A DNA stretch of 64,000 bases from a virus, in the IMG/VR virus record IMGVR_UViG_3300037840_000227, positions 34,783 through 98,782 of that record; one strand, 5' to 3'. The notes under the pieces were generated by a model. The model had not been told where the DNA came from. It made no database searches and saw nothing but the letters and a program-made list of their open reading frames with translations. The stretch's first letter is position 1; every line of letters starts with the position of its first letter. This document shows, piece by piece, positions 21,933 to 63,646 of this stretch. A program made the position numbers and the translations under genes.

Positions 21933-22142
21933 ATGACAAACACCTTCACCCCTGAATACTGCATCGCGCACGCTCGCTATGCCGCTGAGCAAGAGAGAGT
22001 GGCTGCGCCCTATCGGCGCGAATGGCGCACCCTCTCGCCCTATGAACAGAACAACCTCATGAAAGAGATAAGGGCTGTCCTCGATGCGCTCGAGGCGGCC
22101 GGCTATGAGAGGCCGACTGAAAAGCGGAGGGTGTTTGCGTGA
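21933..22142 (+). CDS. Hypothetical protein
   Basis: Short ORF coupled to the next gene. Confidence 0.5.
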   Translation: MTNTFTPEYCIAHARYAAEQERVAAPYRREWRTLSPYEQNNLMKEIRAVLDALEAAGYERPTEKRRVFA

Positions 22143-33575: not shown

Positions 33576-33932
33576 TTACACAGCCTCGCGGGTTTTTATC
33601 CCATTCGCCGCAAGGAATTCGCGAACATCGTTAATGCTGCGGCAGACAGCCCATGGCCAGTGATTCGCGAGGCACAAGTCCCGGAAGTCTTTCTGACTTT
33701 TAGAAAGGACGCCGACGGCGGTTTTGATTTCCAGAAACAAGGCGCGTCCGCGCTCGTCCACGACGATAAGATCGGGGACGCCGGCCATGCCGCCCATCCA
33801 TTTGATCTTGGCAGCCTCAGCCTTTGTGCGAAGACCGCCCATGGGCACATGGAGACAAAGGCACCGGGGCGCCACGGTCCTTATGTATTGAACGACACTG
33901 GCCTGTAGGGACGCTTCGTCGTTGCGGCTCAC
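33576..33932 (-). CDS. VRR-NUC nuclease
   Basis: E..LQ, HVP.GG, GVPDL, FLEIK...G.LS..Q. Confidence 0.85.
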   Translation of the reverse strand: MSRNDEASLQASVVQYIRTVAPRCLCLHVPMGGLRTKAEAAKIKWMGGMAGVPDLIVVDERGRALFLEIKTAVGVLSKSQKDFRDLCLANHWPWAVCRSINDVREFLAANGIKTREAV

Positions 33933-34456
33933 CCAAACCTCGCGAATTCTCCGAAATGCTCGGTCGCGAGACGTTTATAGGCTTCGTGCGCCGCCTCTGG
34001 TGTCTTAAAGCCAGATCGCTCTATGCGCCGATTGTTAATCTGAAGCCGTGCGATCCACCACCCTTTCCGGCGCCTGAAGAGGACGCCTTTGAATGGTGAT
34101 GCGCTATTAGAATTCTTCTTTCTGTTGGCCATATTCTTTGAGTTGTCGGCTTCCCGTAGGTTGGCGATGCGATCATCGCCTTTGTCGCCATTTTTATGAT
34201 CAATCAAACTAGCGGGGAGCGCTCCATAGAAGTATAGCCACGCCATGCGCGAAGCCTTATACGAGCGCCGGTCGACCCTGATATAACGATACCCCTTGAC
34301 ACTTACCCAGCCCGCGCGGATCTTGGCGCGGTGACGCCCGCGGCGCTCAATTATCCACTTGAACCACCCTGTCTCTGGATCGTAGAAATAGTGATCAAGC
34401 AGTCGCGCGCGGAGTGTCGCAATCTCGTCAGAGTTGAAATCAGATGCGCGCGCCAT
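33929..34456 (-). CDS. HNH-AP2 homing endonuclease
   Basis: YDPETG, IDHKNG...DDRIANLREA, AP2 tail. Confidence 0.85.
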   Translation of the reverse strand: MARASDFNSDEIATLRARLLDHYFYDPETGWFKWIIERRGRHRAKIRAGWVSVKGYRYIRVDRRSYKASRMAWLYFYGALPASLIDHKNGDKGDDRIANLREADNSKNMANRKKNSNSASPFKGVLFRRRKGWWIARLQINNRRIERSGFKTPEAAHEAYKRLATEHFGEFARFG

Positions 34457-34703
34457 CTCTCTGCCGCGGCTTAGGTATATAGCGAAAGTCCCGCTCGGTG
34501 AGCTCGATGCCGCGCTTTGCGGCGATGCGCTTGAGTATCTCATCATAGCGCTTGGGGACCCGCCCGTAGCGCCGCCACATCGCCATCGCCGGCAGAGTCA
34601 GCAAGACGCCGGTTTCCTCGTGAATCAAGCGCCTTATAGTCGCCTGTCCGTCGACTGCGAACTTGTCAAAGAGTGGGAAGCGGCCTTCGGCTTTTCTTGT
34701 CAT
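34440..34703 (-). CDS. Cro-like small DNA-binding protein
   Basis: First gene of the leftward operon; AMAMWRRYGRVP resembles a Cro-type HTH. Confidence 0.5.
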   Translation of the reverse strand: MTRKAEGRFPLFDKFAVDGQATIRRLIHEETGVLLTLPAMAMWRRYGRVPKRYDEILKRIAAKRGIELTERDFRYIPKPRQRDGARI

Positions 34704-34776: not shown

Positions 34777-35331
34777 ATGCTCACAGGGGAAACAGGCATG
34801 CGGGACGGTATACCGAGGAATACCTCGCTTACGCAGGCGAGATTGCAGGAGCTTCTCGCATACGATGCGGCCACCGGAGTTCTGACCTGGATTGGCGGCA
34901 GTCGGCTCAACCGCGGCCGCGGGCGTCCACGACGTATTGGCACACGAGCGGGATTCCTGACACCTCACGGTTATAGAAATATTGCCGTTGACGGGATTAT
35001 TTATCGCGAGCACCGGATTATTTGGCTGCTCGTGACTGGTAAATGGCCGTCGCAATTTATGGATCACCGAAACCGCCGACGCGATGACAACCGGTGGAGA
35101 AATCTGCGTGAGGCGACGAGAGTCCAGAATGGACAAAACAGGGGTCTCAACAAAGACAATACAACCGGTGTCCAAGGCGTTTTCCCGAGCGGAACTAGGT
35201 TTATCGCACAGATTACAGTTGATGGTGAGCAAATCTATCTCGGTGCTTTTGGTACGGTCGAACAAGCTGCCGTTGCTCGGCGCTCCGCGAAGGAGCAGCG
35301 CCATCAGTTCCAGCCGGACGGTGGCCTATGA
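34777..35331 (+). CDS. HNH-AP2 homing endonuclease
   Basis: YDAATG, HRIIW, MDHRN..RDDNRW.NLREAT, AP2 tail. Confidence 0.85.
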   Translation: MLTGETGMRDGIPRNTSLTQARLQELLAYDAATGVLTWIGGSRLNRGRGRPRRIGTRAGFLTPHGYRNIAVDGIIYREHRIIWLLVTGKWPSQFMDHRNRRRDDNRWRNLREATRVQNGQNRGLNKDNTTGVQGVFPSGTRFIAQITVDGEQIYLGAFGTVEQAAVARRSAKEQRHQFQPDGGL

Positions 35332-44746: not shown

Positions 44747-44771
44747 AAGGGCCGCGCGAGGCGGCCCTTTT
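44747..44771. terminator. Terminator between convergent operons
   Basis: AAGGGCCGC-GCGAG-GCGGCCCTTTT. Confidence 0.7.
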
Positions 44772-44776
44772 CACAT

Positions 44777-45118
44777 CTAAGTCTCAAGCTTGCCGTTGAC
44801 TACGGCATCATAGAAATGGCGTAAGGCGATCTCGCGGGGGTGCTGATTTACGCTGCGCCACAATTCCTCGTTGAGGTTGTGTATGCCCGCGGCGATAATC
44901 TTGCTCGCCTCATCGAGTGTAAGTCCGGTGATCGTCGGCAGGATGACAATCCTGGCGAGCGCGCCGGCGACGGTGATGCTGGTGCTTGCCTCTAGGAAGT
45001 CTTTATCAAGCGGCTTGTTCCAGGGATGGCCCGACGATGTCGGCTTCGCTATCGGCTGGACAAAGTCGCCAAGCCTCTCGCAGATCGCATCCACGGCGGC
45101 GGTATGGGTATCCGACAT
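44777..45118 (-). CDS. N-tag array protein A11
   Basis: Begins MSDTHTAAVDAICERLGDF. Confidence 0.75.
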   Translation of the reverse strand: MSDTHTAAVDAICERLGDFVQPIAKPTSSGHPWNKPLDKDFLEASTSITVAGALARIVILPTITGLTLDEASKIIAAGIHNLNEELWRSVNQHPREIALRHFYDAVVNGKLET

Positions 45119-45436
45119 TCACATCTCCTCAATCGCACCGCCGCGCGTCATGAAACCATCAAGGATGGCGAGACGATCCGAATGGTGCGCATAGCGCCAG
45201 ATAAGAGGGCCAATATCCCTAACGCCATTGGCTAACAGCGCGGCAAATTGCGACTGGGATAGTGGGGCGCCACTGAGAAGCAAAGAAAGGGCAACCGTTA
45301 CGGAATCAAGATCGGCGGCCATATCGAGCAGCCCATCGCTCGGCTGCCAGAAAGCAAGGGGGTGCCGCGTTGGCGCGATGTAATCCTCAAGGCGCTCCGT
45401 GATCGCATCCACGGCGGCGGCGTGATTATTGGCCAT
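45119..45436 (-). CDS. N-tag array protein A10
   Basis: Begins MANNHAAAVDAITERLEDY. Confidence 0.75.
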   Translation of the reverse strand: MANNHAAAVDAITERLEDYIAPTRHPLAFWQPSDGLLDMAADLDSVTVALSLLLSGAPLSQSQFAALLANGVRDIGPLIWRYAHHSDRLAILDGFMTRGGAIEEM

Positions 45437-45692
45437 GGACAATCCCCATAAACGCCGCATCCTTGACCCGATACCCGGTCCGTACACTCGTCTTTCCGTC
45501 CATCAGCAGCCAGGTAATGGACATCCTATCGCCATCGAGACGAATCGACTCCACCGTGCCGACTCCCGGCACATAATCGCCTAAGCGCAGATCGCCCATG
45601 CAGGGGTGGTGCGCAACTGCGGCGGCCGGCGCGATGTAATCCCCGAGGTGCGCGGTAATTGCCTCAACGGCCTTGGCGTGATTGGTGCTCAA
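45426..45692 (-). CDS. N-tag array protein A9
   Basis: TTG start; STNHAKAVEAITAHLGDY; DLRLGD. Confidence 0.75.
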   Translation of the reverse strand: MSTNHAKAVEAITAHLGDYIAPAAAVAHHPCMGDLRLGDYVPGVGTVESIRLDGDRMSITWLLMDGKTSVRTGYRVKDAAFMGIVHGQ

Positions 45693-45970
45693 AACGGAAT
45701 CTCGTCGGTTTTGACTATTGCTTCGCGAGGCACGACAATGCCGTATGTGCGATTGACGCCTATCGAGAGGTGAATGCAATCGTCAATCAGCACAACTCGG
45801 TATACATCGAGCCACTTTCCGCCCCACCATAGCTTATCGCCATTCCGCAACTGCCAGGCATGGATTTCGGTATACATCCCCGTCGGTTTAGCATTCGTCA
45901 CGCGCTCATAATCCGCAATCGCTTCGCATATTTCCGCTACGGCGCGGGCGTGGGCCTCATTCATCGCCAA
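45689..45970 (-). CDS. N-tag array protein A8
   Basis: NEAHARAVAEICEAIADY; QLRNGD. Confidence 0.75.
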   Translation of the reverse strand: MAMNEAHARAVAEICEAIADYERVTNAKPTGMYTEIHAWQLRNGDKLWWGGKWLDVYRVVLIDDCIHLSIGVNRTYGIVVPREAIVKTDEIPF

Positions 45971-46245
45971 ACCTCGAGCGAGGCGCTGTTTTTGTAGAAA
46001 TCGCCGATAATCTCCGTGGTGCCCTCAAAGAATATTTCCCGAAAGGACGAAGGCGGCGCGTCCCTTATTTTCGTAATTGCGACAAGGCAGTCGCCAATCC
46101 CGGGCGGCGAACAGCGAACCTTATCGCCGACGCGCAGGTCAGCCACGAACACTCGGCCAAGACACCGCGGTCCCCTCTTCTCCTCGAATCCGTAATCCGC
46201 GAGGTGTGCGACAATCTCTTCGACGGCGGCGCTATGATCAGCCAC
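45961..46245 (-). CDS. N-tag array protein A7
   Basis: MADHSAAVEEIVAHLADY; DLRVGD. Confidence 0.75.
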   Translation of the reverse strand: MADHSAAVEEIVAHLADYGFEEKRGPRCLGRVFVADLRVGDKVRCSPPGIGDCLVAITKIRDAPPSSFREIFFEGTTEIIGDFYKNSASLEVWR

Positions 46246-46480
46246 GGATCACCTCGACTGGAGTATGGCGGTCTAAAAAAGAACACCAGTTATGTATCCC
46301 TGGACCGTCCAACCAAAAGAGCGTGACAGTCTTCTTGCGGTGCTGGACGCGAGTGACAACGCCATAGCCAGGAACGATATCGCCGGCACGGACCGCCGCC
46401 GCACGGATCGTTCGGGGCCTTGGCTCGAGTTCCGAGATACGCTCCAAGATCGCCTCAACGGCTTGAGCGTGATCGTTCAC
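46238..46480 (-). CDS. N-tag array protein A6
   Basis: MNDHAQAVEAILERISEL; AVRAGD. Confidence 0.75.
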   Translation of the reverse strand: MNDHAQAVEAILERISELEPRPRTIRAAAVRAGDIVPGYGVVTRVQHRKKTVTLFWLDGPGIHNWCSFLDRHTPVEVIRG

Positions 46481-46704
46481 TACTCGAACTCCCAATCCTG
46501 TAGATCATGCGCCACGGCGGCGCAGGCGAGCCTATAGCGGCGCATCACGGCGTCGCTGATGGGGTGAGGCTTGGTGCGATAAACGCCGTCCTCGATGTTC
46601 TGGATCGCAGCAACCGAGTATCCAATGAGCCTAGATAGCTGCGGGCGATTATAGCGATTGCGCAAGCGCCACGTCTTTGCTTGCTCGCCGGTTGCTTGTG
46701 TCAC
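46480..46704 (-). CDS. XRE-family HTH protein (untagged, inside the array)
   Basis: AKTWRLRNRYNRPQLSRLIGYSVAAIQNIEDG...RLACAAV. Confidence 0.75.
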   Translation of the reverse strand: MTQATGEQAKTWRLRNRYNRPQLSRLIGYSVAAIQNIEDGVYRTKPHPISDAVMRRYRLACAAVAHDLQDWEFE

Positions 46705-46913
46705 GATGGCGTATCCTTTCCTGAGTCTATGTCATAGCCACACATGGCGGCGTAATCCTTGAGGAACGCATCCCAGTCGAAGCTGGTGAGGCGGCTGCGT
46801 AAATTTAGTTGCGCCTCCACCCATGAATAGGCGTTGAATTTTGGCGCAGCGGGAGGCTGATACGGCTCCATCCGCTCTAGGATTGCGGCGACTTTCTGTG
46901 CGTGATCCGTCAT
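46701..46913 (-). CDS. N-tag array protein A5
   Basis: MTDHAQKVAAILERMEPY. Confidence 0.75.
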   Translation of the reverse strand: MTDHAQKVAAILERMEPYQPPAAPKFNAYSWVEAQLNLRSRLTSFDWDAFLKDYAAMCGYDIDSGKDTPS

Positions 46914-47281
46914 AGGATTCCCCCCAGAACTCCACCAAACCAAGAACGAAGATGCTGCGGCTTCTCGGCGTCAAGCAGCGTAAGCGCCACCTTGCGCCGA
47001 TATGCTATCTCTTCAGCAGGCCTGCCGAGAAGTGTCGACACCTCATGCGCGACGAAAACATTGAGAAGGTGTATGCTAGGCCTATCTATTCCTTGACGGG
47101 CCAAATCCAGCTTTTTCTGAGCGACGATCGCTTGCATCTGAGCGAGTGAGAGTCCCGACTGCGCCCAGGGTGGCGCGCTCGCGCCCGCATCACTGCCCGG
47201 CGCGACAGCTACCGGCGGCGGCGCATATTCCTCCGCCTTGTGCAGGATTGCCTCGACTTCGGCGGCGTGCTTCTGGTTCAT
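46910..47281 (-). CDS. N-tag array protein A4
   Basis: MNQKHAAEVEAILHKAEEY. Confidence 0.75.
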   Translation of the reverse strand: MNQKHAAEVEAILHKAEEYAPPPVAVAPGSDAGASAPPWAQSGLSLAQMQAIVAQKKLDLARQGIDRPSIHLLNVFVAHEVSTLLGRPAEEIAYRRKVALTLLDAEKPQHLRSWFGGVLGGIL

Positions 47282-47550
47282 TTCTCTTCTCTGCGTCTTA
47301 TGAGGAGCATGGCTTCACAGGGCCAGTAACGCTGAGGCATAAAGCGCGCATTGGTGAGAAATATCATCTGGTTGTTAAAGAACTTAACTCCCAGCACTTC
47401 AAGCTCTCCTCCGCTATGCTCGTCAAGAAGCACGGTATCGCCGACTAAGACACAATCGGCGCGGGTAAGATGGCCGCGACTGGCGCGGGGTGCGCGATAG
47501 GCGTCCATCTTCTCCAGAATGTTCTCAACGGCTTGCTGATGATCGTTCAT
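47278..47550 (-). CDS. N-tag array protein A3
   Basis: MNDHQQAVENILEKMDAY; VLVGD. Confidence 0.75.
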   Translation of the reverse strand: MNDHQQAVENILEKMDAYRAPRASRGHLTRADCVLVGDTVLLDEHSGGELEVLGVKFFNNQMIFLTNARFMPQRYWPCEAMLLIRRREEK

Positions 47551-47825
47551 AGCAATCCCCGCTCTTTGCATTCGTTATAGGAGGGCGGGACAATTAGAAT
47601 CAGCATGCAGTGCTCCCAATCAATGTCTTTGCCGCCTTCGGTATGCGCATTAATCCACTCTCCCTCGCGCCCTATCTTCAAAATCCGTTCCTGACAAAAG
47701 GCAAGGATGTCGCCTACGCGTAAGTCCCGAGCGAGCACCGGGATACTTTCTTGCGGCGGCTGGTAATAAGGCCCCATCGCATCGAAAATCTCATCGACTG
47801 CCTTGGCGTGCGAGATGCGACTCAC
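47547..47825 (-). CDS. N-tag array protein A2
   Basis: MSRISHAKAVDEIFDAMGPY; DLRVGD. Confidence 0.75.
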   Translation of the reverse strand: MSRISHAKAVDEIFDAMGPYYQPPQESIPVLARDLRVGDILAFCQERILKIGREGEWINAHTEGGKDIDWEHCMLILIVPPSYNECKERGLL

Positions 47826-48118
47826 GATTCAATCGCTCCGATCTTGTACAGCCAGTTGTAGATGGCCGTCGTGCGCAGGCTGTGGCTGGCCTGTTGCCAG
47901 TCGAAATTGACGCATCCGCTCATAGTGGGGCCTTCCGCGGACTGGAGAGTACGTGGAAGTTGTTGGGCGAGCCACATTACAGCGCGTCCGTAGTCGTCAT
48001 ACCTCGCAGCCTTGAAGGCGAGAGCGCGGGCCACGGGATTGGGGAGCCGAGACGTTGCGGGCGCGCTGTAATCCTGCATACGCTCTAGGATGTCCTGGAC
48101 AGCTTGGGCGTGGGTCAA
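47822..48118 (-). CDS. N-tag array protein A1
   Basis: GAAGGAG RBS; MTHAQAVQDILERMQDY. Confidence 0.75.
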   Translation of the reverse strand: MTHAQAVQDILERMQDYSAPATSRLPNPVARALAFKAARYDDYGRAVMWLAQQLPRTLQSAEGPTMSGCVNFDWQQASHSLRTTAIYNWLYKIGAIES

Positions 48119-48179
48119 AATAGCTCCTTCTGGAGATGTGAGTCACCAAAGAGCGAGGTGTGAGGCAAGTCCCGCTGCG

Positions 48180-48431
48180 TCACTGGCGCGCGCATAGGCT
48201 TCGCCGCTCACGGGCGCTCGCCGCCGCCCGCGCCAGCCCTTTCCTCATATACGCCCGGGCGGTAAACCGTCCGGCGTAAATCTCCACGTAGATTTCGCGT
48301 CCGTCGAACAGCTTGAGCGAAACACCGTTCCCGCTCGGCGTTAGCTCGGCGGTATGGCTCTTCTCAGTCTCTTCGTCGTAGAGAACGATTTGCATGATCA
48401 TGGCTAGCCCTTCCCCATTGCTACCGGACAC
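48180..48431 (-). CDS. Hypothetical protein
   Basis: ORF in the leftward operon; the start may be at MIMQIV. Confidence 0.5.
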   Translation of the reverse strand: MSGSNGEGLAMIMQIVLYDEETEKSHTAELTPSGNGVSLKLFDGREIYVEIYAGRFTARAYMRKGLARAAASARERRSLCARQ

Positions 48432-48478
48432 CTAATCGCCCGTATATGGCGCACCTCGCGTGCGCCATAGGCTTGCGG

Positions 48479-48940
48479 TCAGGCTCGCGCATTCGCCTTT
48501 GCGTTCCAGACTGCTTCCACCATATTCTCTGCGTCGGGCGGCCCTGCCTCGTTCGGTGTCCAGGTGCGCCAATCGTCGCCGGAATATTTGCCGTCTAGCT
48601 CCTTCTCCAAGACGGCGCACACTTCATCGGAAATATCCAGCCACGCGGCCTGGTAGATTTCCGCGCCGGTCATTTCGCCTTGCGAGGTGCGATACTTAGA
48701 ATCGTTGTCGTAATCGCCAACCATCGCGATACGATCACCGCGCCACGCGCCGATAATGGCCGGTCCAGTAAGATCGCCACCGCCTGCGCCGTTCGAGGCG
48801 GACGCCAGTAAAACAATCAACGCGGCGCCGGTTCCGGGATGATTCGCCAATTGCTCCCAGAGCTTCAAGCCGCACCCGAGTCGGTGCGGGTCTATTTGCT
48901 GGCATTTATCGAGGTTAACAACCCTGTGATACTGTCCCAT
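48479..48940 (-). CDS. Conserved-looking phage hypothetical protein with C-tag-like tail
   Basis: MGQY...VNLDK...GLKLWE...GAWRGDRI..VGDY; ends PPDAENMVEAVWNAKANARA. Confidence 0.7.
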   Translation of the reverse strand: MGQYHRVVNLDKCQQIDPHRLGCGLKLWEQLANHPGTGAALIVLLASASNGAGGGDLTGPAIIGAWRGDRIAMVGDYDNDSKYRTSQGEMTGAEIYQAAWLDISDEVCAVLEKELDGKYSGDDWRTWTPNEAGPPDAENMVEAVWNAKANARA

Positions 48941-49012
48941 TGGATTCCCCTTTCAGGTTCGGACTCAATCGCCCGCCGTCGCCCCGCCTTTCGACGGGGC
49001 GCTAGCTGGCGG

Positions 49013-49915
49013 TCAGCCGAGAAAGTCACTCGCCAACTCTAGGATACGTTGCGCTGCGTCTGCCGTCGTCGCCCGTAGGGTTTCATCCTCGCGAAGCTCT
49101 TGAGCGTCATGCCCGCACAGATCGGCGCGCATGGCCTCTACAAGAGCGTCTAGGCGCGAGTCGTTGGTGAGATTGAGCGCCGGCAGGATGTCCACAAGCT
49201 CGCGGACATTATCGACAAGCGATGCCTTGAATGTACCGCTTGCTCGCTGGCCGTCGTCGCCCGGCTGATAGGCGCGGAGCCGTTCAATCATGTGGCTTAC
49301 AGCATCCATGATCCTGGTTTGCGTGTCCTTCATCGCGCCGTCTAGCGCCTGCCGATTAGCTGCCTCGATATCGCGGCGAATATCGCCGGCTTGATCCGCG
49401 TCAAGCTCGACTCGGAAATCAGCGGCGTCTGGGATGGGCAGGATACGGACGTCGAACGCAAAGGCGTCCTCAAGGTCGCTCGCGGGCGGATAATCGGCCT
49501 CGTCAAAAAGGTCGCCAAGCGAGCGCCGCGCGGCTTGAACATGCGCGGTATAGGCGCCCTGAAAATCGCGTACTGCATCCTCGAATGCGGTCTTTGCCTT
49601 GTGAACGGCCTTGCAATACGTGTCGTATGCCTTGGCCGGCAGGATACGGGCGCCGTTGTCGAGCCAAGGAAGCGTATGCTTGTAGTGCGCGGCGCGCGCG
49701 TCGCCAGCGGCAGCGGCGATTGACTTCACGGCTGTCTTGTCCACGAGCGCTTTGGTGAAACGTCCCGAGTCGCTGTTGGCGTGGTTTGTCTCCAGCGTTT
49801 CGGCCGTCGCGCGTTTGTCGAGCTTGCGCGCCTGCCACTGGCGGATGGTGAGGCTCGAAAGCATCGCGCGGGATGCGAGCAAGCCGTTTGTCTGTACTGT
49901 GGTTTGCATGTTCAT
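49013..49915 (-). CDS. DUF3150-like protein
   Basis: AML.SL.I..W.ARKLDK...K.L....TLPW.D.GARILP....F...Y......LGDLF...DYP. Confidence 0.7.
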   Translation of the reverse strand: MNMQTTVQTNGLLASRAMLSSLTIRQWQARKLDKRATAETLETNHANSDSGRFTKALVDKTAVKSIAAAAGDARAAHYKHTLPWLDNGARILPAKAYDTYCKAVHKAKTAFEDAVRDFQGAYTAHVQAARRSLGDLFDEADYPPASDLEDAFAFDVRILPIPDAADFRVELDADQAGDIRRDIEAANRQALDGAMKDTQTRIMDAVSHMIERLRAYQPGDDGQRASGTFKASLVDNVRELVDILPALNLTNDSRLDALVEAMRADLCGHDAQELREDETLRATTADAAQRILELASDFLG

Positions 49916-49932
49916 TGTCGATCCCCAGAGTT

Positions 49933-50007
49933 AGAGGCTAATCGCCTCGGACCGCGCCGCCCCGAGTGGAGCGGCGCGCGCCGAGTAGATCAGAGGCTAA
50001 TCGCCTC
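49933..50007. repeat. Direct repeat AGAGGCTAATCGCCTC x2 flanking a GC hairpin
   Basis: Copies at 49933-49948 and 49992-50007, each itself a GAGGC/GCCTC hairpin. Confidence 0.75.
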
Positions 50008-50172
50008 AAGATATGTCAGCCCCGCCGCCGCCAGCGCGAGGCTAACGACGACGATCCAGCCGATGGCGTCGACGCGCGCGGCTAGCTGCGAGCGGCGGCG
50101 GGCGCGGGTGTAGGCAATCCAGCTATCGAGGCTATTGAAGTGGTGTCTATCGATCATGAGACTCCCCTGTGG

Positions 50173-50382
50173 TTATGCCGATAAGGTTGCGAGCTTCGCC
50201 CGCAGTTTCACCAATCGCGCGGCGCTCATTGCGTCATGCGGATGATGTTTAAGGTGGCCCTCTATCGCCGCGATCACGCGGGCGACTGTTGCGCGTTGCT
50301 TCGGCGCGCAGACGTTCTGCTTGACGCGATCGCCAGTGAGTCCGCCGCGCCATGCCCTCGGGTGAATGCTGAGACTGTCCAT
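50173..50382 (-). CDS. Hypothetical protein
   Basis: GGAGGAG RBS; IEGHLKHHPHD. Confidence 0.6.
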   Translation of the reverse strand: MDSLSIHPRAWRGGLTGDRVKQNVCAPKQRATVARVIAAIEGHLKHHPHDAMSAARLVKLRAKLATLSA

Positions 50383-50390
50383 TTCTCCTC

Positions 50391-50588
50391 CTAGATTGCG
50401 ATGTTGAACGGCGCGATTGAGTAGACGTCGCAGTTATCGACGCGCCGGCCGCGCCATAGCCGGATGGTTAAGCCGCGCCCCGCGATTGGAGCGACGGCGA
50501 AGCGAGCGAAAGCTAGGGCGGCGGCGCCGTCCGTGAAAGTGACGGGCCGATAACCTGGGATCGAAAGGCGATAGACGGGCATTGACAA
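50391..50588 (-). CDS. Hypothetical protein, first gene of the leftward arm
   Basis: AAAGGA RBS. Confidence 0.5.
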   Translation of the reverse strand: MSMPVYRLSIPGYRPVTFTDGAAALAFARFAVAPIAGRGLTIRLWRGRRVDNCDVYSIAPFNIAI

Positions 50589-50605
50589 TCCTTTGTCCGC
50601 TAGTT

Positions 50606-50738
50606 AGGCGCAATTCGCCCGGCGCTATCTAAGGCATATAAATACGCTGCTTGCAATGATTAAATGCTGTTGACAGGTGAAAAATAACTGGACTGTCCTA
50701 ACAATCGGGTGTAGGGAAATGGCGGGCGAATTGCGCCT
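50606..50738. promoter_or_regulatory. Divergent promoter region bounded by 16-bp perfect inverted repeats
   Basis: AGGCGCAATTCGCCCG (50606-50621) and CGGGCGAATTGCGCCT (50723-50738) around an AT-rich core containing TTGACA and TTGCAA. Confidence 0.7.
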
Positions 50739-50762
50739 TTTGCACTAATCACGGGGACTCTC

Positions 50763-51836
50763 ATGCACATAATCCAAGCGAAACAATGCCTTAAGGCCTA
50801 TATACAGGCCGGCATTCCGACATTTTTGGAAGGACCGCCCGGTGTCGGCAAGTCGGATATTACCTATCAGGTGTCCGACGAGCTAAGCGCCTATCTTGTC
50901 GAGGAGCGGGCGTCGACTCTTGAGTCTATCGACATGCGCGGGCTTCCGTTCGTTTACAACATCGGGAATCTCGCGAGCGCCCTCGCTGGCGCGCATGCGG
51001 ATAAGGTGCAATCGATCCTCGATCAGATGGAAGTCTATGCCGGCCCAACTGTCCAATGGGCTAAGCCGCATTGGCTGGACGAATTGGAGCGCGCGCCGGC
51101 TGAACAGCTTAAAATTCTCTTCCTCGATGAGCTAGTGCAAGCAAGTCTCGCTGTTCAAGTCGCCTGTTTTCAGTTGGTATGGAATGGCCGAATCGGCCCT
51201 CACAAGCTCCCGCCTCATACCATCGTCGTTGCGGCTGGCAATCGCCAGGCTGACCGCGCCGGCGCCAATCGCATGCCAACGGCCCTCGCCAACCGATTCG
51301 GGCATATCGATGTCGAGGTGGATTCCGACACGTGGCAAAAATGGGCCAACGTCAACGGGATCGAGCCGCTGTTGTGTGCGTTTTTGAAGTTCAGGCCGGC
51401 CTCGCTTCATCGCATGCCGGAAGGCAATGTCAAAGCATTCCCCTCACCGCGCTCCTGGGTGCAAGTGGCGAAGATTCTCCATGCGGCGGATGACATCAGG
51501 CCGAAGCTAATCGAAGGGCTTGTCGGCGAAGGCGATGCAGCCGAGTTGGAGAAGTTCATTCAAATGTACAAACATCTCCCCTCCTTCGCCGAGATTATCG
51601 CTAGGCCTCAGACGGTTGCAGTCCCGACTCAACCGGACATTCAACACGCTGTGGCGTCGATGCTCTCGCGCAAGGCGGATCGGACGAATTTTGATGCAAT
51701 CTGTGTCTATGCCGGCAGATTGCCGAAGGAATTCGAAGTGAGTCTCGTGAGCGAGGCGGTTCAACGCGACGCGGGCTTGAAAACGACGAAGGGCTTTATC
51801 GCTTGGGCATCCCGCAATTCCGACATTACAATCTAA
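50763..51836 (+). CDS. MoxR-type AAA+ ATPase
   Basis: Walker A GPPGVGKS, Walker B ILFLDE, AAGN, ALANRF, PSPRSW. Confidence 0.9.
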   Translation: MHIIQAKQCLKAYIQAGIPTFLEGPPGVGKSDITYQVSDELSAYLVEERASTLESIDMRGLPFVYNIGNLASALAGAHADKVQSILDQMEVYAGPTVQWAKPHWLDELERAPAEQLKILFLDELVQASLAVQVACFQLVWNGRIGPHKLPPHTIVVAAGNRQADRAGANRMPTALANRFGHIDVEVDSDTWQKWANVNGIEPLLCAFLKFRPASLHRMPEGNVKAFPSPRSWVQVAKILHAADDIRPKLIEGLVGEGDAAELEKFIQMYKHLPSFAEIIARPQTVAVPTQPDIQHAVASMLSRKADRTNFDAICVYAGRLPKEFEVSLVSEAVQRDAGLKTTKGFIAWASRNSDITI

Positions 51837-51848
51837 GGAGGGGACGAA

Positions 51849-53006
51849 ATGACGCCCCTACAGGCTAAAGCCGCTGAGCGCATACGGATCGCCCGTATGC
51901 GCGTCATGCTCAAAAATGGATTCTTCGGCGCGCCTCTTATGCAGATGGGCATGCGCGCCGAGGACTCGATTCCAACGATGGGAGTCGACGGCCGACATCT
52001 CTACTACAACGCCAAATGGGTGCTCGATCTCAAGGGCGATGAACTGCAGGGCGTTCTCGTACATGAGGTGCTGCATATCTGCTATCTGCACCATACGCGC
52101 CGAGGGGACCGCGATCCAGAGCTATGGAATGTCAGCGGGGATGCGGTCATTAACCTGGATGTTAAAGCCGCCGGCTTCCAGCTACCTCCCGGCGTTAACA
52201 CCCCAGGCGGGATGATCCAAATACCGGATGCAGCCGGCAAGTCTTGTGAGCAAGTATACAACATGCTCAAGAAGCAAGGCTTCAAACCGGCGCCCGGTCC
52301 TGATCCTGGCGGATGCGGCGGCGTCATGGATGCAGCCAAGCCCCATCAGGTGGTAGCGCTCGGCGAAGCGGAGCGACAGGCGCAACAAATGATCCGGGGC
52401 GCGATGGCTGTTGCGCGCGGGCGCAACGCGGGCAATATTCCATCGGCGCTCGTGCGGATGATGGCCGAACTGGATAAGCCTAAAACGAGTTGGGGCGATA
52501 CGTTCCGAGCTTGGGCGGATGAGGGCCGCAGCTATGATACCGATTGGTGTCGGCCATCGCGGCGCGATCTCGGGAATGGATTTATCCTGCCGTCAACCGT
52601 CTCGATTGCGCCGGCTCATATCGTGGCCTGGGTTGATACGTCTGGCTCCATGTCGCAAGAGGCTCTGAGCGCGATCATGGCGGAGCTTCAGGGGATGCTT
52701 GACGAGCACGTGTGCGACAAGCTCACCATTGGTTATTGCGACACGCGCGTTCAGGGTACGGAGGAGTGTGAGCCGGGCGACATTATCAAATCGGTTCCGC
52801 GCCCTGGCGGCGGTACCGATTTCGCGCCAGCAATGGAGTGGACTCGCCAGAACGTGGAGCGGCCATCGGGTGTCGTGTACCTCACCGATCTGGAATGCCA
52901 CTCGTTCGGCTTTTCGCCTGGGTGTCCCGTTTTGTGGGTGCGGTATGGCTCCTATGGCAATAATCCGCCGTACGGCCGTGTTCTCGAAATCGATCCAAGC
53001 GCATGA
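51849..53006 (+). CDS. HExxH metallopeptidase-like plus VWA domain protein (DUF2201-like)
   Basis: VLVHEVLH...H..RR...WN...D..IN; MIDAS VDTSGSMS, GGGTDF, YLTD. Confidence 0.9.
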   Translation: MTPLQAKAAERIRIARMRVMLKNGFFGAPLMQMGMRAEDSIPTMGVDGRHLYYNAKWVLDLKGDELQGVLVHEVLHICYLHHTRRGDRDPELWNVSGDAVINLDVKAAGFQLPPGVNTPGGMIQIPDAAGKSCEQVYNMLKKQGFKPAPGPDPGGCGGVMDAAKPHQVVALGEAERQAQQMIRGAMAVARGRNAGNIPSALVRMMAELDKPKTSWGDTFRAWADEGRSYDTDWCRPSRRDLGNGFILPSTVSIAPAHIVAWVDTSGSMSQEALSAIMAELQGMLDEHVCDKLTIGYCDTRVQGTEECEPGDIIKSVPRPGGGTDFAPAMEWTRQNVERPSGVVYLTDLECHSFGFSPGCPVLWVRYGSYGNNPPYGRVLEIDPSA

Positions 53007-53254
53007 GCGAGAAAGTCACTCTTACGCCAGAACAAGCGGCAGGATTGCCGACCGGTGTCCAGTGGGAACTCGTGCGCCTCGTGACTGGCAGCGTTGGCGC
53101 GCTGGACGCAGTGAACTTTGGCGCCGGTCGCGCGTTCCCGCTGTATTGGAGCCTTGTACGCAAGTGCTGGTGCTCGGTAGAACCGGACTTGCCACCGTCA
53201 ATGGCAGTCTGGGATGCCATAGATGAGCTACGGGCGACTGAGGCACGCCGATGA
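53003..53254 (+). CDS. C-tag array protein B1
   Basis: Ends VWDAIDELRATEARR. Confidence 0.75.
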   Translation: MSEKVTLTPEQAAGLPTGVQWELVRLVTGSVGALDAVNFGAGRAFPLYWSLVRKCWCSVEPDLPPSMAVWDAIDELRATEARR

Positions 53255-53598
53255 GCAAAGCGCCCAAGCCTCGCAAGCGGCGGTTCGAGCACGTCAAGGC
53301 AGGGGATGTGCTGGTTACCGCGCCGTCTGAGCGATACGGTGTCAGGGGTACGTATTTCGTTGTCGTACTGCTGCGCCAAGTCGATGCGGTATACTGTCAG
53401 ACATGCGATGAGGACGGCAGCCATGCGCGCGGCCCGAAATGGGGTAGTTCCGTTTTGAGATTGGCTCAACAAGGATTCCAGTACGTTTCCGTCTGGCGGG
53501 CTCTCGCGCACCAGGAGCAAGTCGCATCTGTCACGCATGACGCGGATGCGCTGTATGAGGCTATCGAGGCTCTTCGCGAGCGGGAGGCGCGCCGATGA
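53251..53598 (+). CDS. C-tag array protein B2
   Basis: Ends LYEAIEALREREARR; contains HVKAGD. Confidence 0.75.
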   Translation: MSKAPKPRKRRFEHVKAGDVLVTAPSERYGVRGTYFVVVLLRQVDAVYCQTCDEDGSHARGPKWGSSVLRLAQQGFQYVSVWRALAHQEQVASVTHDADALYEAIEALREREARR

Positions 53599-53858
53599 AG
53601 GAGGCGTATGTGATTCTGAACGGGGAGCAATTGCTGAAGTTGCCGGGGGGCACTGGCGCGTATCACCACGCGTGGCTAGACCCGAACGGCTATATCGTTG
53701 CCGAGTCGCTCATGGGCGGTCCTAAACTATTCTGGGCGCCGATATCGCGGGAATGGTGGGAGTACCGCGAAGCGCAGCCGCCCGACGTCTGCGATATGAT
53801 CGAGGCGATTGAGGAATTAAGAGCTTCGGAGGCAGGACGATGGGGCAAGGGCCAATAG
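53595..53858 (+). CDS. C-tag array protein B3
   Basis: Ends MIEAIEELRASEAGRWGKGQ. Confidence 0.75.
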   Translation: MKEAYVILNGEQLLKLPGGTGAYHHAWLDPNGYIVAESLMGGPKLFWAPISREWWEYREAQPPDVCDMIEAIEELRASEAGRWGKGQ

Positions 53859-54178
53859 ACGCGGGCGATCTGCATCGGCGCGCCCTGCGGGTTCTTGCGG
53901 GCGAGAAGATCGATTACTGGGCTCCGCAGCGCGAACTTCCTAGGGATACTCCTTTTGAACTCGCCAATTGGCAGAGGGTGCAATTCACTGGCGCGCTCGT
54001 GGCGATAGACGCAACTGGCTATTACGCGCCTGTCGTGAAGATTAAGAGCCAATGGCATAGGCTATATACCTTTGGCGAGGATTGGGGCAATCGATTGGAA
54101 AATGCACCATCGGCGCCCGATAGCATTGCAATGTGGGATGCTATCGACGCGCTCCGAGCCTCGGAGGCCGGGCGATGA
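53840..54178 (+). CDS. C-tag array protein B4
   Basis: Ends MWDAIDALRASEAGR. Confidence 0.75.
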   Translation: MGQGPIDAGDLHRRALRVLAGEKIDYWAPQRELPRDTPFELANWQRVQFTGALVAIDATGYYAPVVKIKSQWHRLYTFGEDWGNRLENAPSAPDSIAMWDAIDALRASEAGR

Positions 54179-54417
54179 AAGTTCCGAGCGAATTGACGAT
54201 AGAGAGAACCGCCGCGGGCTTGCCTTCTGGCATATGGGAGTACCATCGCGAGAGTTTTGGACTCGTCGCGGAAGATCATTCCGGCGTTCATGCGCCGTAC
54301 TGTTGGAATGTCTACGATGGAGAATGGCGCGTCTTGCTAGGCCGCGCGCACGAGCGTCACGGGCCGCACATTGAAGATGCAATCGAGGAATTGCGCGCCA
54401 GCGAGGCAAGGCGATGA
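54175..54417 (+). CDS. C-tag array protein B5
   Basis: Ends IEDAIEELRASEARR. Confidence 0.75.
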   Translation: MKVPSELTIERTAAGLPSGIWEYHRESFGLVAEDHSGVHAPYCWNVYDGEWRVLLGRAHERHGPHIEDAIEELRASEARR

Positions 54418-54659
54418 AGTTCAACGATCTGACGAGCGATCAGCGCTATTTGCTGTTGCGGGTGAGCAGCGGGCCATGGGAGTTTCATCTCGACGTCAAT
54501 GGCTATCTCGTGGCGACTCATCGCTTCTTGAAGTGGTGTCGATACTGGAGTCCGCTGCGATCAATGTGGCTACCGCTATCGTTAGTGCCGCTCGAAGCGG
54601 CAGCGATCTGGGATGCGATCGAAGAGCTTCGCGCCTCAGAGCGGCGGAACACGAGCTAG
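54414..54659 (+). CDS. C-tag array protein B6
   Basis: Ends IWDAIEELRASERRNTS. Confidence 0.75.
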   Translation: MKFNDLTSDQRYLLLRVSSGPWEFHLDVNGYLVATHRFLKWCRYWSPLRSMWLPLSLVPLEAAAIWDAIEELRASERRNTS

Positions 54660-54913
54660 TGATTTGATTTAATTGATGTTTCAGTCTCTAATGCTGCGTC
54701 GCGCTCTTCATCCATCGTTGATGTCGCCAGCCAGCGGTCATTGGCAAGTCTCGCGACAATCCAATGCGCCAGGCGAGCAACCGACGTCGGCGCTCTCACC
54801 GCGTCGAACATGTCGGTTATCGGAGCGTGCTCGCCACTTGCCAGCACCACGACTCGCCGGATCAGATCGACGCTCGAAACCTCGTCTCGTCGTGCTCTAA
54901 TCTGCCGGTCCAT
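54656..54913 (-). CDS. Hypothetical protein
   Basis: Convergent ORF that bounds the array. Confidence 0.5.
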   Translation of the reverse strand: MDRQIRARRDEVSSVDLIRRVVVLASGEHAPITDMFDAVRAPTSVARLAHWIVARLANDRWLATSTMDEERDAALETETSIKSNH

Positions 54914-59958: not shown

Positions 59959-60165
59959 ATGCGGCTCATGATGATAGCTGTTTCCTACCTCTTCATTGGA
60001 GCAGTAATGGTTGGGCTTGGGCTAGGCCTTCACAACCGCCGTTGTCCGAACGATCGCGAGTCGCTTATTGAGAATCGAATTGAGCTTGCGACTTGGCCAA
60101 TCGAACTTGTCATGGGGGTCGCCTATTTCTCCGCAGGGGGCCAGCTTCCGGCTTGTGAAAAATGA
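59959..60165 (+). CDS. Small membrane protein
   Basis: Hydrophobic N-terminus. Confidence 0.5.
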   Translation: MRLMMIAVSYLFIGAVMVGLGLGLHNRRCPNDRESLIENRIELATWPIELVMGVAYFSAGGQLPACEK

Positions 60166-60389
60166 GCACCGTTATGCCTAACCCCCTCCTCATCCTCGCA
60201 TCGCTTCTGATCGCCGGGCAGGCATGGGGGCAGGATTTCCCGATATATCCAGACTTGTGCGAACGAGACGGCTATATCGCACCGTGCAGCGTCGTACTAG
60301 CGAACTTACAAGAGGGTGACACGCTTTTGTTTAGGTCTTACGAAATAGCTTGGATTAACCCGATTCCATTGTTTGGAGCACCGCTATGA
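60162..60389 (+). CDS. Small exported protein
   Basis: LLILASLLIAGQAWG signal. Confidence 0.5.
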   Translation: MSTVMPNPLLILASLLIAGQAWGQDFPIYPDLCERDGYIAPCSVVLANLQEGDTLLFRSYEIAWINPIPLFGAPL

Positions 60390-60808
60390 TCCGCTCTCTT
60401 CTGATCGCGGCCGCGATGTTGGTTGCTGGCGAGGCGTGGGCGACGACTTGTGAAACGTCGGAATCCATAAAAGAACGCGCGATCGCCAATGCCTATGCGC
60501 AATCCGCAAGAGAAAGTATGCCGTTCTACGGATGCAATGAGGGGTGCTCAATGGCGTCATCGGTAGCAGACTCTATGCGCATGACTGCTGAACGCTTCTT
60601 AGCCGAATCACATGCGCATCGACACATTGCCGAGCAATTGGAAGTAATCCAGTGCTCAAGCAACGTGACCCACGATATCGGCGCCAACAGTACAATGTGC
60701 ATTGGCGCTCTGACTGGTTCTTGCATCGCTTGTCCTGACGGACTTGAGCCCGTCACCCGCGCCAATGGCTCGCCGGGGTGCGCGAGAGCTGTGGAGGAAC
60801 CGAGATGA
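60386..60808 (+). CDS. Exported Cys-rich protein
   Basis: Signal; ends CPDGLEPVTRANGSPGCARAVEEPR. Confidence 0.6.
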   Translation: MIRSLLIAAAMLVAGEAWATTCETSESIKERAIANAYAQSARESMPFYGCNEGCSMASSVADSMRMTAERFLAESHAHRHIAEQLEVIQCSSNVTHDIGANSTMCIGALTGSCIACPDGLEPVTRANGSPGCARAVEEPR

Positions 60809-60860
60809 CACCGCAATTTGAGTATAGTAATCCACCTGCCGTTTTCCAGGAGCCCTCACA

Positions 60861-61130
60861 ATGAACCGCTTACTCCTCATCACCGCCGCCGGGTTGATCG
60901 CAAGCCAAGCCGCCGCGCAGCAACTACCCCCGTGCAAATTCCAGAAGGGAATGAACTACTGTTCCAGGGACGGCGTCCACTGGCGTCAGTCGGTGTATCG
61001 CGACTGTACGGACAACGGTCCGAATACGTGCGAAACGTCACCAAATCCTTCATGTCCGGCGAATACTGAGCTCGTCACGCGCTCCAGCGGCGCTCCGGGA
61101 TGCGCGCGGGATGTGACGGACCCGCAATGA
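60861..61130 (+). CDS. Exported Cys-rich protein (paralogous C-terminus)
   Basis: AGGAG RBS; signal; ends CPANTELVTRSSGAPGCARDVTDPQ. Confidence 0.6.
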   Translation: MNRLLLITAAGLIASQAAAQQLPPCKFQKGMNYCSRDGVHWRQSVYRDCTDNGPNTCETSPNPSCPANTELVTRSSGAPGCARDVTDPQ

Positions 61131-62809: not shown

Positions 62810-63221
62810 GGATCGAAAGAAAATGCGCAGCCACACCGCCGCCGGGGCCAATGGCGAGCCAAGGGCGGTCGAGCCGAGTTTCGACATGCCGGATGATGAA
62901 GGCGCGCCGCCGCCGGTTCCGTCCAACCCAGATAGGCAGGCGATCATGCGCGCTCAATCCCTCGCGGCCGTCGCCGCGGAGCGGGCGGCCAACCCAACTG
63001 ATCTCCCAGAGAACCTCGATGCCGATCAGCGCGACGCGCTCCTCGCCGCGCAGCGAATGAAGCCAAAGTCGCCGGCGATGCGTAAGGCCTCAGGGCTGCC
63101 GGTTTCAGAAATGCGGATGCGGATGCTCGAGATGGCCTCCAGAGTGGCCGATCCGAAGGCGGGCCCCGCCGGGCTGATCGAAGCGGCCAAGCAGCTCCTC
63201 GATTTCGTCAGTGAGGGCTGA
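62742..63221 (+). CDS. Hypothetical protein
   Basis: C-terminal RMR.LEMA...LIEAAK.L.DFV; start uncertain. Confidence 0.5.
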   Translation: MGKTTNHRLRRARQWARELQESKDRKKMRSHTAAGANGEPRAVEPSFDMPDDEGAPPPVPSNPDRQAIMRAQSLAAVAAERAANPTDLPENLDADQRDALLAAQRMKPKSPAMRKASGLPVSEMRMRMLEMASRVADPKAGPAGLIEAAKQLLDFVSEG

Positions 63222-63646
63222 TGAGCGCCACGGCTCTCACCTACGCTCCCCCGCCGCCGCCCGTGACGATTGTCGGCCCTGTCCCGGGCGGCGGCGGGGC
63301 AGGAAACCGCGGGATCATGGTTCCGCGAGGCAAGCCGGATCCGGAGGGCGGCGCCGACTATCCACCTCTCGAAATCCAATTTGGCGATGACGACGCCTTC
63401 GAAAACCCGGATCACGCCGCCAAGGTCCGCCGGATTTGTGAAGACATGGACGGCGCCATTTCCCCTGTGCTGCCGGGCCGCATTCGATTCGAGTGTGCGG
63501 CTGCGGACCCGCCATTCTCGGGCTCCCCAACACTCCGAGGCGCGCCCCTCGCCGAGCGAATCTTCATCTATAGCGCTCTCTTTATTATTATAGGGCTGAT
63601 GACGATGGGCCTGTGGACGATCGTCAGGCTGCTGGGATTTCTCTGA
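63221..63646 (+). CDS. Hypothetical protein with C-terminal TM
   Basis: TGATG coupling. Confidence 0.5.
   Translation: MSATALTYAPPPPPVTIVGPVPGGGGAGNRGIMVPRGKPDPEGGADYPPLEIQFGDDDAFENPDHAAKVRRICEDMDGAISPVLPGRIRFECAAADPPFSGSPTLRGAPLAERIFIYSALFIIIGLMTMGLWTIVRLLGFL

Follow-up and report, generated by a model that had tools for sequence, protein, structure and literature searches.

Two operon-coupled families of helix-tagged small proteins at a MoxR/peptidase-VWA/DUF3150 locus of a soil phage

A 99-kb soil phage (98.8-kb genome) carries a divergent locus, at positions 44777-54659 of the 64,000-nucleotide stretch analysed here (the window), that is best explained as a lineage-specific elaboration of a widespread gene trio by two operon-coupled families of small modular proteins. 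The trio encodes a MoxR-type AAA+ ATPase, a peptidase-VWA protein and a DUF3150-family protein; to our knowledge, it has no known function. One small-protein family carries a constant helix at its N terminus (N-tag) and the other at its C terminus (C-tag). Our best reading is that the tags are docking elements for the adjacent machine, which we hold tentatively and with somewhat less than even confidence; the reading of the arrays as independent accessory-gene families ranks close behind.

The right arm, on the + strand, runs from the AAA+ gene through a DUF2201 gene, which combines an HExxH peptidase with a VWA domain, to six translationally coupled small genes. The left arm, on the - strand, has three small ORFs upstream of the DUF3150-family gene, then that gene, two untagged genes and 11 coupled N-tagged genes broken by one HTH gene. 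An earlier note on this DNA had described the divergent locus, its gene content and its shared helices, all of which we confirm with corrections; its left arm of a DUF3150-like gene and 11 tagged ORFs stands, but it omitted the three upstream, two untagged and one HTH ORF. The three genes heading the left operon (49990..50588, - strand; 65, 69 and 55 aa) have good Shine-Dalgarno sequences and coding-like GC3, and the 55-aa protein has a hydrophobic helix at its C terminus. The untagged genes, encoding 153 aa (48479-48940, - strand) and 83 aa (48180-48431, - strand), fill the interval between the DUF3150 gene and the N-tag array (48180..48940). Pfam, PHROG and NCBIfam scans assigned neither product to a family and neither has a homologue among 80 trio loci; the 153-aa protein resembles viral hypothetical clusters. 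The HTH gene (46480-46704, - strand), also untagged, lies inside the N-tag array, and an NCBIfam scan of it returned nothing. All the small ORFs show a coding-like GC1>GC2<GC3 pattern.

The two arms diverge from a control region (50589..50762) that contains a perfect 14-bp inverted repeat pair (50607-50620 and 50724-50737). On the left the locus is bounded by a GC-rich, 9-bp hairpin between convergent genes (44749-44771; -18 to -24 kcal/mol), which is terminator-like with a U-tract on the + strand, and on the right by a convergent ORF (54656-54913), in agreement with the terminator and convergent gene proposed before. A consensus promoter/terminator scan found no site at the locus boundaries, yielded fewer sites overall than in shuffles, and missed the hairpin. 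The locus lies between replication and small-terminase genes, outside the structural module. Its sequence was found in two soil DNA runs and is identical in both, so there is no microdiversity to read; a megablast comparison of the phage with known phages gave no match.

The ATPase (50763..51836, + strand; 357 aa) matches Pfam AAA at 23.8 bits (cut-off 21.2) and phrog_1297 with an E-value of 7e-82, AAA_5 falling just below its cut-off (21.6 against 22 bits). Its Walker A/B, sensor and Arg residues (G27, K30, D122, E123, N160 and R178) do not vary among 24 homologues, and by fold it comes closest to the MoxR ATPases NorQ and CbbQ (Foldseek E 2e-9; TM 0.63-0.67 by target). With an AAA+ core, a helix-2 beta-hairpin insert and a neighbouring VWA gene, it is a MoxR-class AAA+ protein. 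That VWA gene begins 12 nt downstream (51849..53006, + strand; 385 aa; phrog_1314), and its product matches both the putative metallopeptidase family DUF2201_N and the DUF2201 VWA family (PF13203 and PF09967) well above the gathering cut-offs (122.7 against 23.2 and 88.2 against 26.4 bits). The HExxH motif is HEVLH at residues 72-76, with H72 and H76 nearly invariant among homologues, and the MIDAS is intact, D263, S265, S267, T323 and D347 being invariant among 21 homologues. On these grounds we assign the protein to the peptidase-VWA family, with peptidase catalysis putative. An NCBIfam scan returned nothing for it or for the ATPase. Pfam matches, fold and residue conservation thus bear out the MoxR AAA+ and HExxH-peptidase/VWA(MIDAS) genes of the earlier note.

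The third core protein (49013..49915, - strand; 300 aa) is predicted to comprise an N-terminal alpha/beta part and a C-terminal helical bundle (AF2 pLDDT 90.8). It matched nothing in Pfam, NCBIfam or the PDB by sequence, and the Pfam DUF3150 model (PF11348) was silent even at E 10. It has 162 homologues, however, several with PF11348; full-length homologues bearing that domain are 37-48% identical (E 1e-54 to 1e-74), a cyanophage MinM2 homologue is named DUF3150 by NCBI, and Atlas clusters with PF11348 match it with a score of 0.97-0.98 and a TM of about 0.9 (0.89). The label of DUF3150-like given to it previously is therefore supported through its homologues and the Atlas match, although not by the Pfam model directly, and we class it on this homology as a divergent DUF3150 member. 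The model found no Foldseek match among solved folds, and VIA-align returned only generic helical bundles (Z about 10). A likeness by eye between the N-tag and the DUF3150 C-terminal helix was rejected (hhalign P 0.02, probability 2%; shuffle p 0.12), and the shuffle p of 0.013 for the N-tag against residues 191-226 is not taken as evidence.

The core is a genuine, widespread MoxR/peptidase-VWA/DUF3150 unit of mobile elements. The trio was found in 76 of the 80 viral loci fetched, with the AAA-VWA pairing likewise kept in 76/80, and on conjugative plasmids, where it adjoins type IV secretion and PRTRC genes. Among the uncharacterised gene pairs of N4-like and jumbo phages, MoxR/peptidase-VWA is one of the commonest; joined by DUF3150, it makes up the trio of many uncultivated phages and of conjugative plasmids. 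In eight of the 80 loci an unrelated small paralogue family (2-5 copies each) is embedded inside the trio, mostly between AAA and VWA; the trio of cyanophage MinM2 likewise encloses three paralogues. Comparison by hhalign of both tag families with the small-protein family of other trio loci revealed no relation. In several loci there are paralogue arrays at a distance from the trio as well, which makes adjacency by itself weak evidence.

The left-arm array (44777..48118, - strand) comprises 11 coupled genes of 70-123 aa, starting, as high coordinates, at 48118, 47825, 47550, 47281, 46913, 46480, 46245, 45964, 45692, 45436 and 45118, and overlapping by 1-11 nt, mostly 4. Each product has the tag helix, a Pro-rich linker and a variable body; after start correction the helix, with the consensus H-A-x-A-V-E-A-I-x-E-R-L-x-D-Y-x-x-P, stands at the very N terminus. 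The bodies had been called otherwise different, and they do fall into at least three classes, but not all of them differ. The right-arm array (53003..54659, + strand) comprises six coupled genes of 80-115 aa, starting at 53003, 53251, 53595, 53840, 54175 and 54414, whose products have the reverse order of body, Pro-containing linker and C-terminal tag helix; the helix is WDAIEELRASEARR-like in all six. These genes are joined by 4-nt ATGA overlaps, the first overlapping the VWA stop codon, and the final C-tag codons double as Shine-Dalgarno sequence and ATGA overlap for the next gene. The right-arm bodies are weakly related to one another along their length. The C family has a seventh, weak relative well away from the locus (21933-22142).

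Both tags are far beyond chance: with tag HMMs, members score 25-41 bits and other six-frame ORFs of the 98.8-kb genome at most about 10 bits, or up to about 12 bits when non-members are scanned in 36-residue windows. An origin of the tags in DNA repeats or gene conversion was rejected, mean nucleotide identity within tags being only 0.54-0.63 and synonymous sites being saturated. At identical residues, N-tag codons differ at 0.54, against 0.57 for random draws from codon usage, and C-tag codons at 0.71 against 0.59. Saturation in both tags indicates selection at the protein level, and this supports the view that the helices behave as modular tags under such selection.

Neither tag was found in the 80 related trio loci or elsewhere in the phage genome; the trio, therefore, does not need tags. 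For the C family, an exhaustive HMMER search of 1.84 billion protein clusters yielded nothing that we deem genuine beyond its own six proteins; three long repeat proteins matched in the body region only and are judged spurious. When both tag-family alignments were used for word-based homologue searches, nothing but the phage's own proteins came back; degenerate DNA patterns for the two tags had no match in IMG/VR, and the C-tag pattern had none in JGI metagenomes. The N-tag pattern gave 19 single matches there, which equals chance expectation, all low-scoring and inside larger proteins. The small proteins drew no match in Pfam or PHROG either. The earlier note had proposed to look for co-occurrence of tags with AAA/DUF2201-VWA/DUF3150 loci; as the tags are seen in this phage alone (0/80 trio loci), that comparison cannot support docking.

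A possible link between tags and core came from the ATPase itself. Residues 64-89 form a 26-aa insertion, absent from 70 homologues, that is the only sizeable lineage-specific insertion across the three core proteins. In the AF2 model, helices 67-74 and 79-92 lie between strands 62-64 and 97-99, so that the insertion is predicted to be a helical hairpin capping the H2-insert beta-hairpin. In NorQ-NorD, H2 inserts bind the VWA finger (PMC13036017). AAA residues 77-95 resemble the N-tag, and outside the family no sequence in the genome fits the N-tag profile better than the insertion does: 19 of the 21 profile positions are covered, the core V, I, M and Y align in register, and the score was reached by 1/5000 shuffles. 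The chance of the top genomic hit landing in these ~32 of 151,114 residues is ~2e-4 (about 2 in 10,000). Nevertheless, the match is short, with a genome-wide HMMER E-value of 0.067, and an ORF at 63221-63646 has a partial match of similar strength. Peptide patterns found no close relatives of the ATPase in IMG/VR, and no C-tag-like segment was found in the core proteins.

We favour docking because the tags are constant while the bodies differ, with Pro-rich linkers and saturated synonymous sites; because close coupling ties the arrays to core genes, through the ATGA on the VWA stop and the DUF3150 operon; because an N-tag-like helix sits in the AAA partner-binding hairpin; because effector-associated domains provide a precedent for the logic; and because other trio loci embed small paralogue families of their own. 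The constant amphipathic helices, joined via a Pro-rich linker to bodies that vary, would recruit diverse small proteins to a common partner, most likely the neighbouring machine, of whose ATPase/VWA-peptidase they would be interchangeable adaptors or clients. The N-tag might contact a crown of six tag-like helices on the AAA helix-2-insert hairpins, which hold the VWA finger in solved MoxR-VWA complexes, either by helix-to-helix pairing or by mimicking the AAA insertion and binding its partner. We infer any binding, the status of the small proteins as adaptors or clients, and their biological targets. The docking reading is weakened because the linkage rests on one genome, with the tags absent from 80 related trio loci; because the AAA-tag likeness is short and a partial match in ORF 63221-63646 is of similar strength; because the core proteins are without a C-tag-like segment; and because the ribosome-binding site of the next gene puts a constraint of its own on the final C-tag codons. 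A four-chain complex prediction (AAA 1-215, DUF3150, the VWA protein and the N-tagged protein 47822-48118) scored 0.00 and counts neither way. Modular tags, a genuine core and a tag-like AAA helix partly support the docking tags that were originally proposed, although co-occurrence is no help. The most specific form, in which 17 small adaptors retarget a MoxR/peptidase-VWA/DUF3150 machine through two helix tags, the N-tag being copied into the ATPase partner-binding hairpin and recruitment occurring by homotypic pairing or mimicry, we consider unlikely as a whole.

The absence of tags from all other trio loci is as expected if the arrays are independent accessory-gene families, that is lineage-specific expansions for host takeover or counter-defence, whose helix self-associates or binds a host hub and whose adjacency to the trio is incidental. 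Small paralogue arrays at other places in phage loci and within the window, the far-off seventh C-family relative, and right-arm bodies distantly related lengthwise, as plain paralogues would be, point the same way. We regard this as possible but doubtful, since it leaves unexplained the tag-like insertion in the AAA partner-binding hairpin, one N-terminal helix on bodies of at least three types, and the abutment of both arrays on module operons (the C-array on the VWA stop and the N-array downstream in the DUF3150 operon).

The fusion of an HExxH peptidase to the VWA domain, and tags that are terminal and set off by linkers, would also suit small proteins that are clients, with tags acting as degrons or propeptides by which the ATPase/peptidase would remodel, cleave or clear them on a timetable; in T4 an N-terminal targeting peptide is removed by a phage protease (PMC9026906). 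We think this improbable, as no cleavage motif is definable and on other elements the trio occurs without clients of this kind. In T4, internal proteins whose bodies otherwise differ have in common an N-terminal targeting peptide of 10-19 residues (PMC9026906), and a virion-assembly role has been proposed for the phage MoxR/peptidase-vWA pair (Iyer et al.; PMC7824862), so that the tags might instead load diverse small proteins into the capsid for co-injection, with the MoxR/VWA-peptidase as assembly chaperone, in line with the proposal for jumbo phages. The position of the locus outside the structural module argues against this, as does the failure to find a prohead protease among the large ORFs in a non-exhaustive scan, and the same trio resides on conjugative plasmids beside type IV secretion and PRTRC genes. 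Plasmids do not make virions; the assembly role thus fits poorly, and we rate virion targeting as more improbable still. Least probable of all is pairing of the N-tag and C-tag helices with each other to give combinatorial heterodimers of 11 left-arm and 6 right-arm proteins, as might be imagined from two complementary libraries on divergent operons with one control region and from tags that are both short amphipathic helices, but for which no charge complementarity is evident.

This phage may expose the logic of the trio, through candidate partners marked by short, portable tags and a corresponding helix on the ATPase at the point where MoxR proteins hold the VWA partner. Binding, if confirmed, would offer a first handle on what the trio acts on and a tag of 20 residues by which proteins of choice could be directed to a MoxR machine; otherwise, the arrays would stand as a clear case of small proteins diversifying by modules in a phage.

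Among known systems, the MoxR AAA+/VWA pairs NorQ-NorD, CbbQ-CbbO and RavA-ViaA are alike in AAA fold (NorQ/CbbQ), adjacent MIDAS-intact VWA and H2-insert hairpin. The phage module differs in that its VWA is fused to an HExxH peptidase domain (DUF2201_N), DUF3150 is a third conserved partner, the H2-insert tip bears a 26-residue helical insertion, and the module is found on phages and plasmids with no adjoining metalloenzyme client. The MoxR/metallopeptidase-vWA pair of N4-like and jumbo phages (Iyer et al., 2021; PMC7824862) belongs to the same families, phrog_1297 and phrog_1314, which span >500 phage records; tagged arrays are not reported there, and a tblastn search with the phage DUF3150 protein matched only four phage records, none N4-like or jumbo. 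T4 capsid-targeting sequences likewise place a constant short N-terminal peptide on diverse small proteins from a variable array, whereas the system here belongs to a different type of phage and has a second library tagged at the C terminus, any packaging or cleavage being hypothetical. The MoxR-vWA ternary conflict systems (Kaur et al., 2020; PMC7159879) also have three conserved components around MoxR and vWA, and in these bacterial systems an effector-associated domain is found once on a core protein and again at either terminus, N or C, of effectors encoded next to it. The adaptor logic, a small module on the core and on the termini of variable neighbours, may be alike, but the AAA/N-tag match is short and no core copy of the C-tag was found; in the phage, which is not a multicellular bacterium, the third component is DUF3150 and probably not VMAP or iSTAND, and the module is a 20-residue helix rather than a folded domain, its candidate core copy being an insertion within the AAA protein. 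Retargeting by 17 adaptors would then be a minimal, peptide-sized viral version of the effector-associated-domain principle.

The tagged locus (44777-54659) lies between the replication and recombination genes and the small terminase gene (55680) of a phage represented by a 98,782-bp IMG/VR viral contig, of which the window forms the final 64 kb. The contig carries a 127-bp terminal repeat and is rated complete; it comes from soil metagenomes, where the identical sequence was found in two runs, and DNA-level comparison with known phages returned none that was close. Judged from its genes, the phage is podovirus-like: it encodes a large terminase, a portal-type adaptor, a tail tubular protein and three internal virion proteins of ~1000 aa each, together with a primase-helicase, a RecT-like protein and an exonuclease. 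Three neighbouring small ORFs at 60162-61130 (+) are detectably paralogous to one another and form another small-gene expansion in this phage, and the divergent ORFs at 33929-34546 (-) and 34777-35331 (+), ~185-205 aa in length, are also mutual paralogues.

Two operons diverge from a 174-bp control region (50589-50762). The rightward operon (+) encodes an AAA+ ATPase, a DUF2201_N/DUF2201 protein and six small proteins whose genes are joined through ATGA overlaps; the leftward operon (-) comprises three small genes, a 300-aa DUF3150-family gene, two untagged genes and 11 small genes, the last tightly coupled in a series broken by a single HTH gene. The left end is closed by a GC-rich hairpin and the right end by a convergent gene. 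A perfect 14-bp inverted-repeat pair (50607-50620 and 50724-50737) brackets the divergent promoter region and is a candidate operator pair; the presence of the HTH gene within the left array may be noted beside it. Just upstream of the DUF3150 gene, a 15-bp hairpin-forming sequence occurs in two exact copies 59 bp apart (49934-49948 and 49993-50007; 0.17 matches expected by chance), and a 55-aa ORF directly upstream of the same gene (49990-50157, -), with a hydrophobic helix at its C-terminal end, probably encodes a small membrane protein.

The earlier note had described this core as flanked by two arrays of small proteins carrying constant terminal tags, an unusual arrangement that our analysis confirms. 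After correction of start codons, all 11 left-arm proteins open with the N-tag, a helix of ~20 residues with invariant H, V and I and a nearly invariant Y in a/d-like spacing, followed by a Pro/Ala-rich linker. All six right-arm proteins end in a common helix, the C-tag, preceded by a Pro-containing linker. The last four or five C-tag codons double as the Shine-Dalgarno sequence and ATGA of the next gene, and the final right-arm gene, which has no downstream partner, retains the helix and its Glu. Identical residues of either tag are encoded by different codons as frequently as chance sampling of the genome's codon usage would give; the tags' conservation is therefore old and exerted on the protein, rather than that of a DNA repeat. 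The bodies differ: those of the left arm divide into one beta-rich class marked by an L-R-x-G-D motif, one helical class and two that stand alone; right-arm bodies, one or two excepted, are weakly alike. A tag-profile search of the whole genome found no additional tag copy. Far from the locus, a small ORF at 21933-22142 (+) shows a weak match to the right-arm family (E 0.001 across the genome) that extends to a degenerate C-terminal helix, and from this likeness may be a diverged seventh member.

The first gene of the rightward operon encodes a MoxR-type AAA+ ATPase, with a Pfam AAA match, a match to phrog_1297 at E 7e-82, conserved catalytic residues and an AF2 model (pLDDT 88) whose nearest structures are NorQ and CbbQ. 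The DUF2201_N/DUF2201 gene begins 12 nt downstream, and its product, which has the VWA domain, contains HEVLH and a MIDAS site that is both intact and invariant. The 300-aa protein is not matched by the Pfam DUF3150 model; 162 homologues were detected, many of them full-length and PF11348 carriers among them. Its predicted structure is confident, yet no informative solved fold resembles it. A likeness seen by eye between its C-terminal helix and the N-tag failed on testing and was rejected.

As the best reading of these arrays, we tentatively favour docking: the tag helices would attach their proteins to one common partner, and this partner would be the adjacent machine. The top match of the N-tag profile outside its own family, genome-wide, is to residues 77-95 of the ATPase; the alignment spans 19 of 21 profile positions and keeps the hydrophobic core in register. 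These residues belong to a 26-residue insertion that is unique to this phage in an alignment with 70 homologues, is also missing from the plasmid homologue, and is the only sizeable lineage-specific insertion among the three core proteins. In the AF2 model the insertion folds into a pair of helices, 67-74 and 79-92 (pLDDT about 60), which sit on the tip of the hairpin of strands 62-64 and 97-99; this hairpin is the helix-2 insert. In the NorQ-NorD cryo-EM structures, the six H2 inserts encircle the pore entrance and hold the VWA 'finger', a contact that the authors regard as the general mode of MoxR-VWA docking (PMC13036017). The N-tag would then pair with, or mimic, a tag-like crown on the H2 inserts. 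Only 1 of 5000 shuffles of the ATPase segment attains the observed score, and by chance the top genomic match would land in these ~32 of 151,114 residues with a probability of about 2e-4; the match is nevertheless short, with a genome-wide HMMER E-value of 0.067, and the second-best non-family match, a partial one of similar strength, is an internal 13-residue segment of an unrelated 141-aa ORF (63221-63646, +) that resembles the first half of the N-tag.

The trio of AAA, VWA and DUF3150 genes is complete in 76 of the 80 viral loci fetched via DUF3150 homologues, without exception on a single strand; the order is AAA-DUF3150-VWA in 47 loci, DUF3150-AAA-VWA in 27 and AAA-VWA-DUF3150 in 2. Among the fetched trio loci, DUF3150 is divergent only in this phage. 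The DUF3150 protein also matched 60 plasmid records, and the trio occurs on conjugative plasmids of Burkholderiales. In both plasmid records inspected (Paraburkholderia plasmid pl2WSM5005, L087, and a Simplicispira plasmid, L086) the AAA and VWA genes adjoin DUF3150, with PRTRC and type IV secretion genes around the trio in one record and methyltransferase and addiction genes in the other. A virion-assembly role was proposed earlier for the jumbo-phage AAA/peptidase-vWA pair (PMC7824862); a purely virion-assembly role is disfavoured here because the trio also resides on conjugative plasmids.

Both tag families are absent from the 80 viral loci. Word-based searches of 5.8 billion proteins found neither outside this phage, exhaustive HMMER searches of 1.84 billion cluster representatives found no relatives of the right-arm family, and degenerate DNA patterns for the tags gave at most single matches at chance level in IMG/VR and JGI metagenomes. 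The co-occurrence of tags and trio across genomes that the earlier note proposed as a test therefore cannot be demonstrated; equally, it is not contradicted, as no tag array was found without the trio.

The main rival, which we rank as only a little less likely, is that the arrays represent ordinary expansions of accessory genes, with the helix used for self-association or for binding a host target. Other trio loci also carry small-protein families. Eight of the 80 contain 2-5 paralogues of a separate small-protein family, mostly between AAA and VWA (inside or beside this pair at L054:11975-14034, L020:11885-14357, L034:13503-15610, L011:12482-13206, L064:12283-12967 and L047:7440-9389); these proteins, of about 110-130 aa, pair a beta-rich body with a conserved helix at the C terminus, marked by the motif L-S-P-E-D-I-A, and belong to no Pfam family. 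The cultured cyanophage Synechococcus phage MinM2 carries yet another family, three tandem paralogues (36-56% identity) between DUF3150 and VWA (L002:9914-10940). Neither is related to the families of the window. Such repeated acquisition of multi-copy small partners by the trio raises the prior for functional coupling, with modest weight because paralogue arrays occur elsewhere in phage loci too. That the tags are degrons or propeptides, that they target the capsid as in T4 (PMC9026906), or that N-tags and C-tags pair with each other, are minor alternatives.

The docking interpretation in the earlier note is partly supported, as a hypothesis on a single uncultivated genome. We rate its interest as moderate to high, since the trio is a very common, uncharacterised module of mobile elements on which this locus makes concrete, cheap binding experiments possible. 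We would class the locus as a variant of the MoxR-VWA partner systems. Effector-associated domains of bacterial MoxR-vWA ternary systems occur as one copy on the core and more on variable neighbours (PMC7159879); we propose that this phage may follow the same logic, with the domain shrunk to a single helix.
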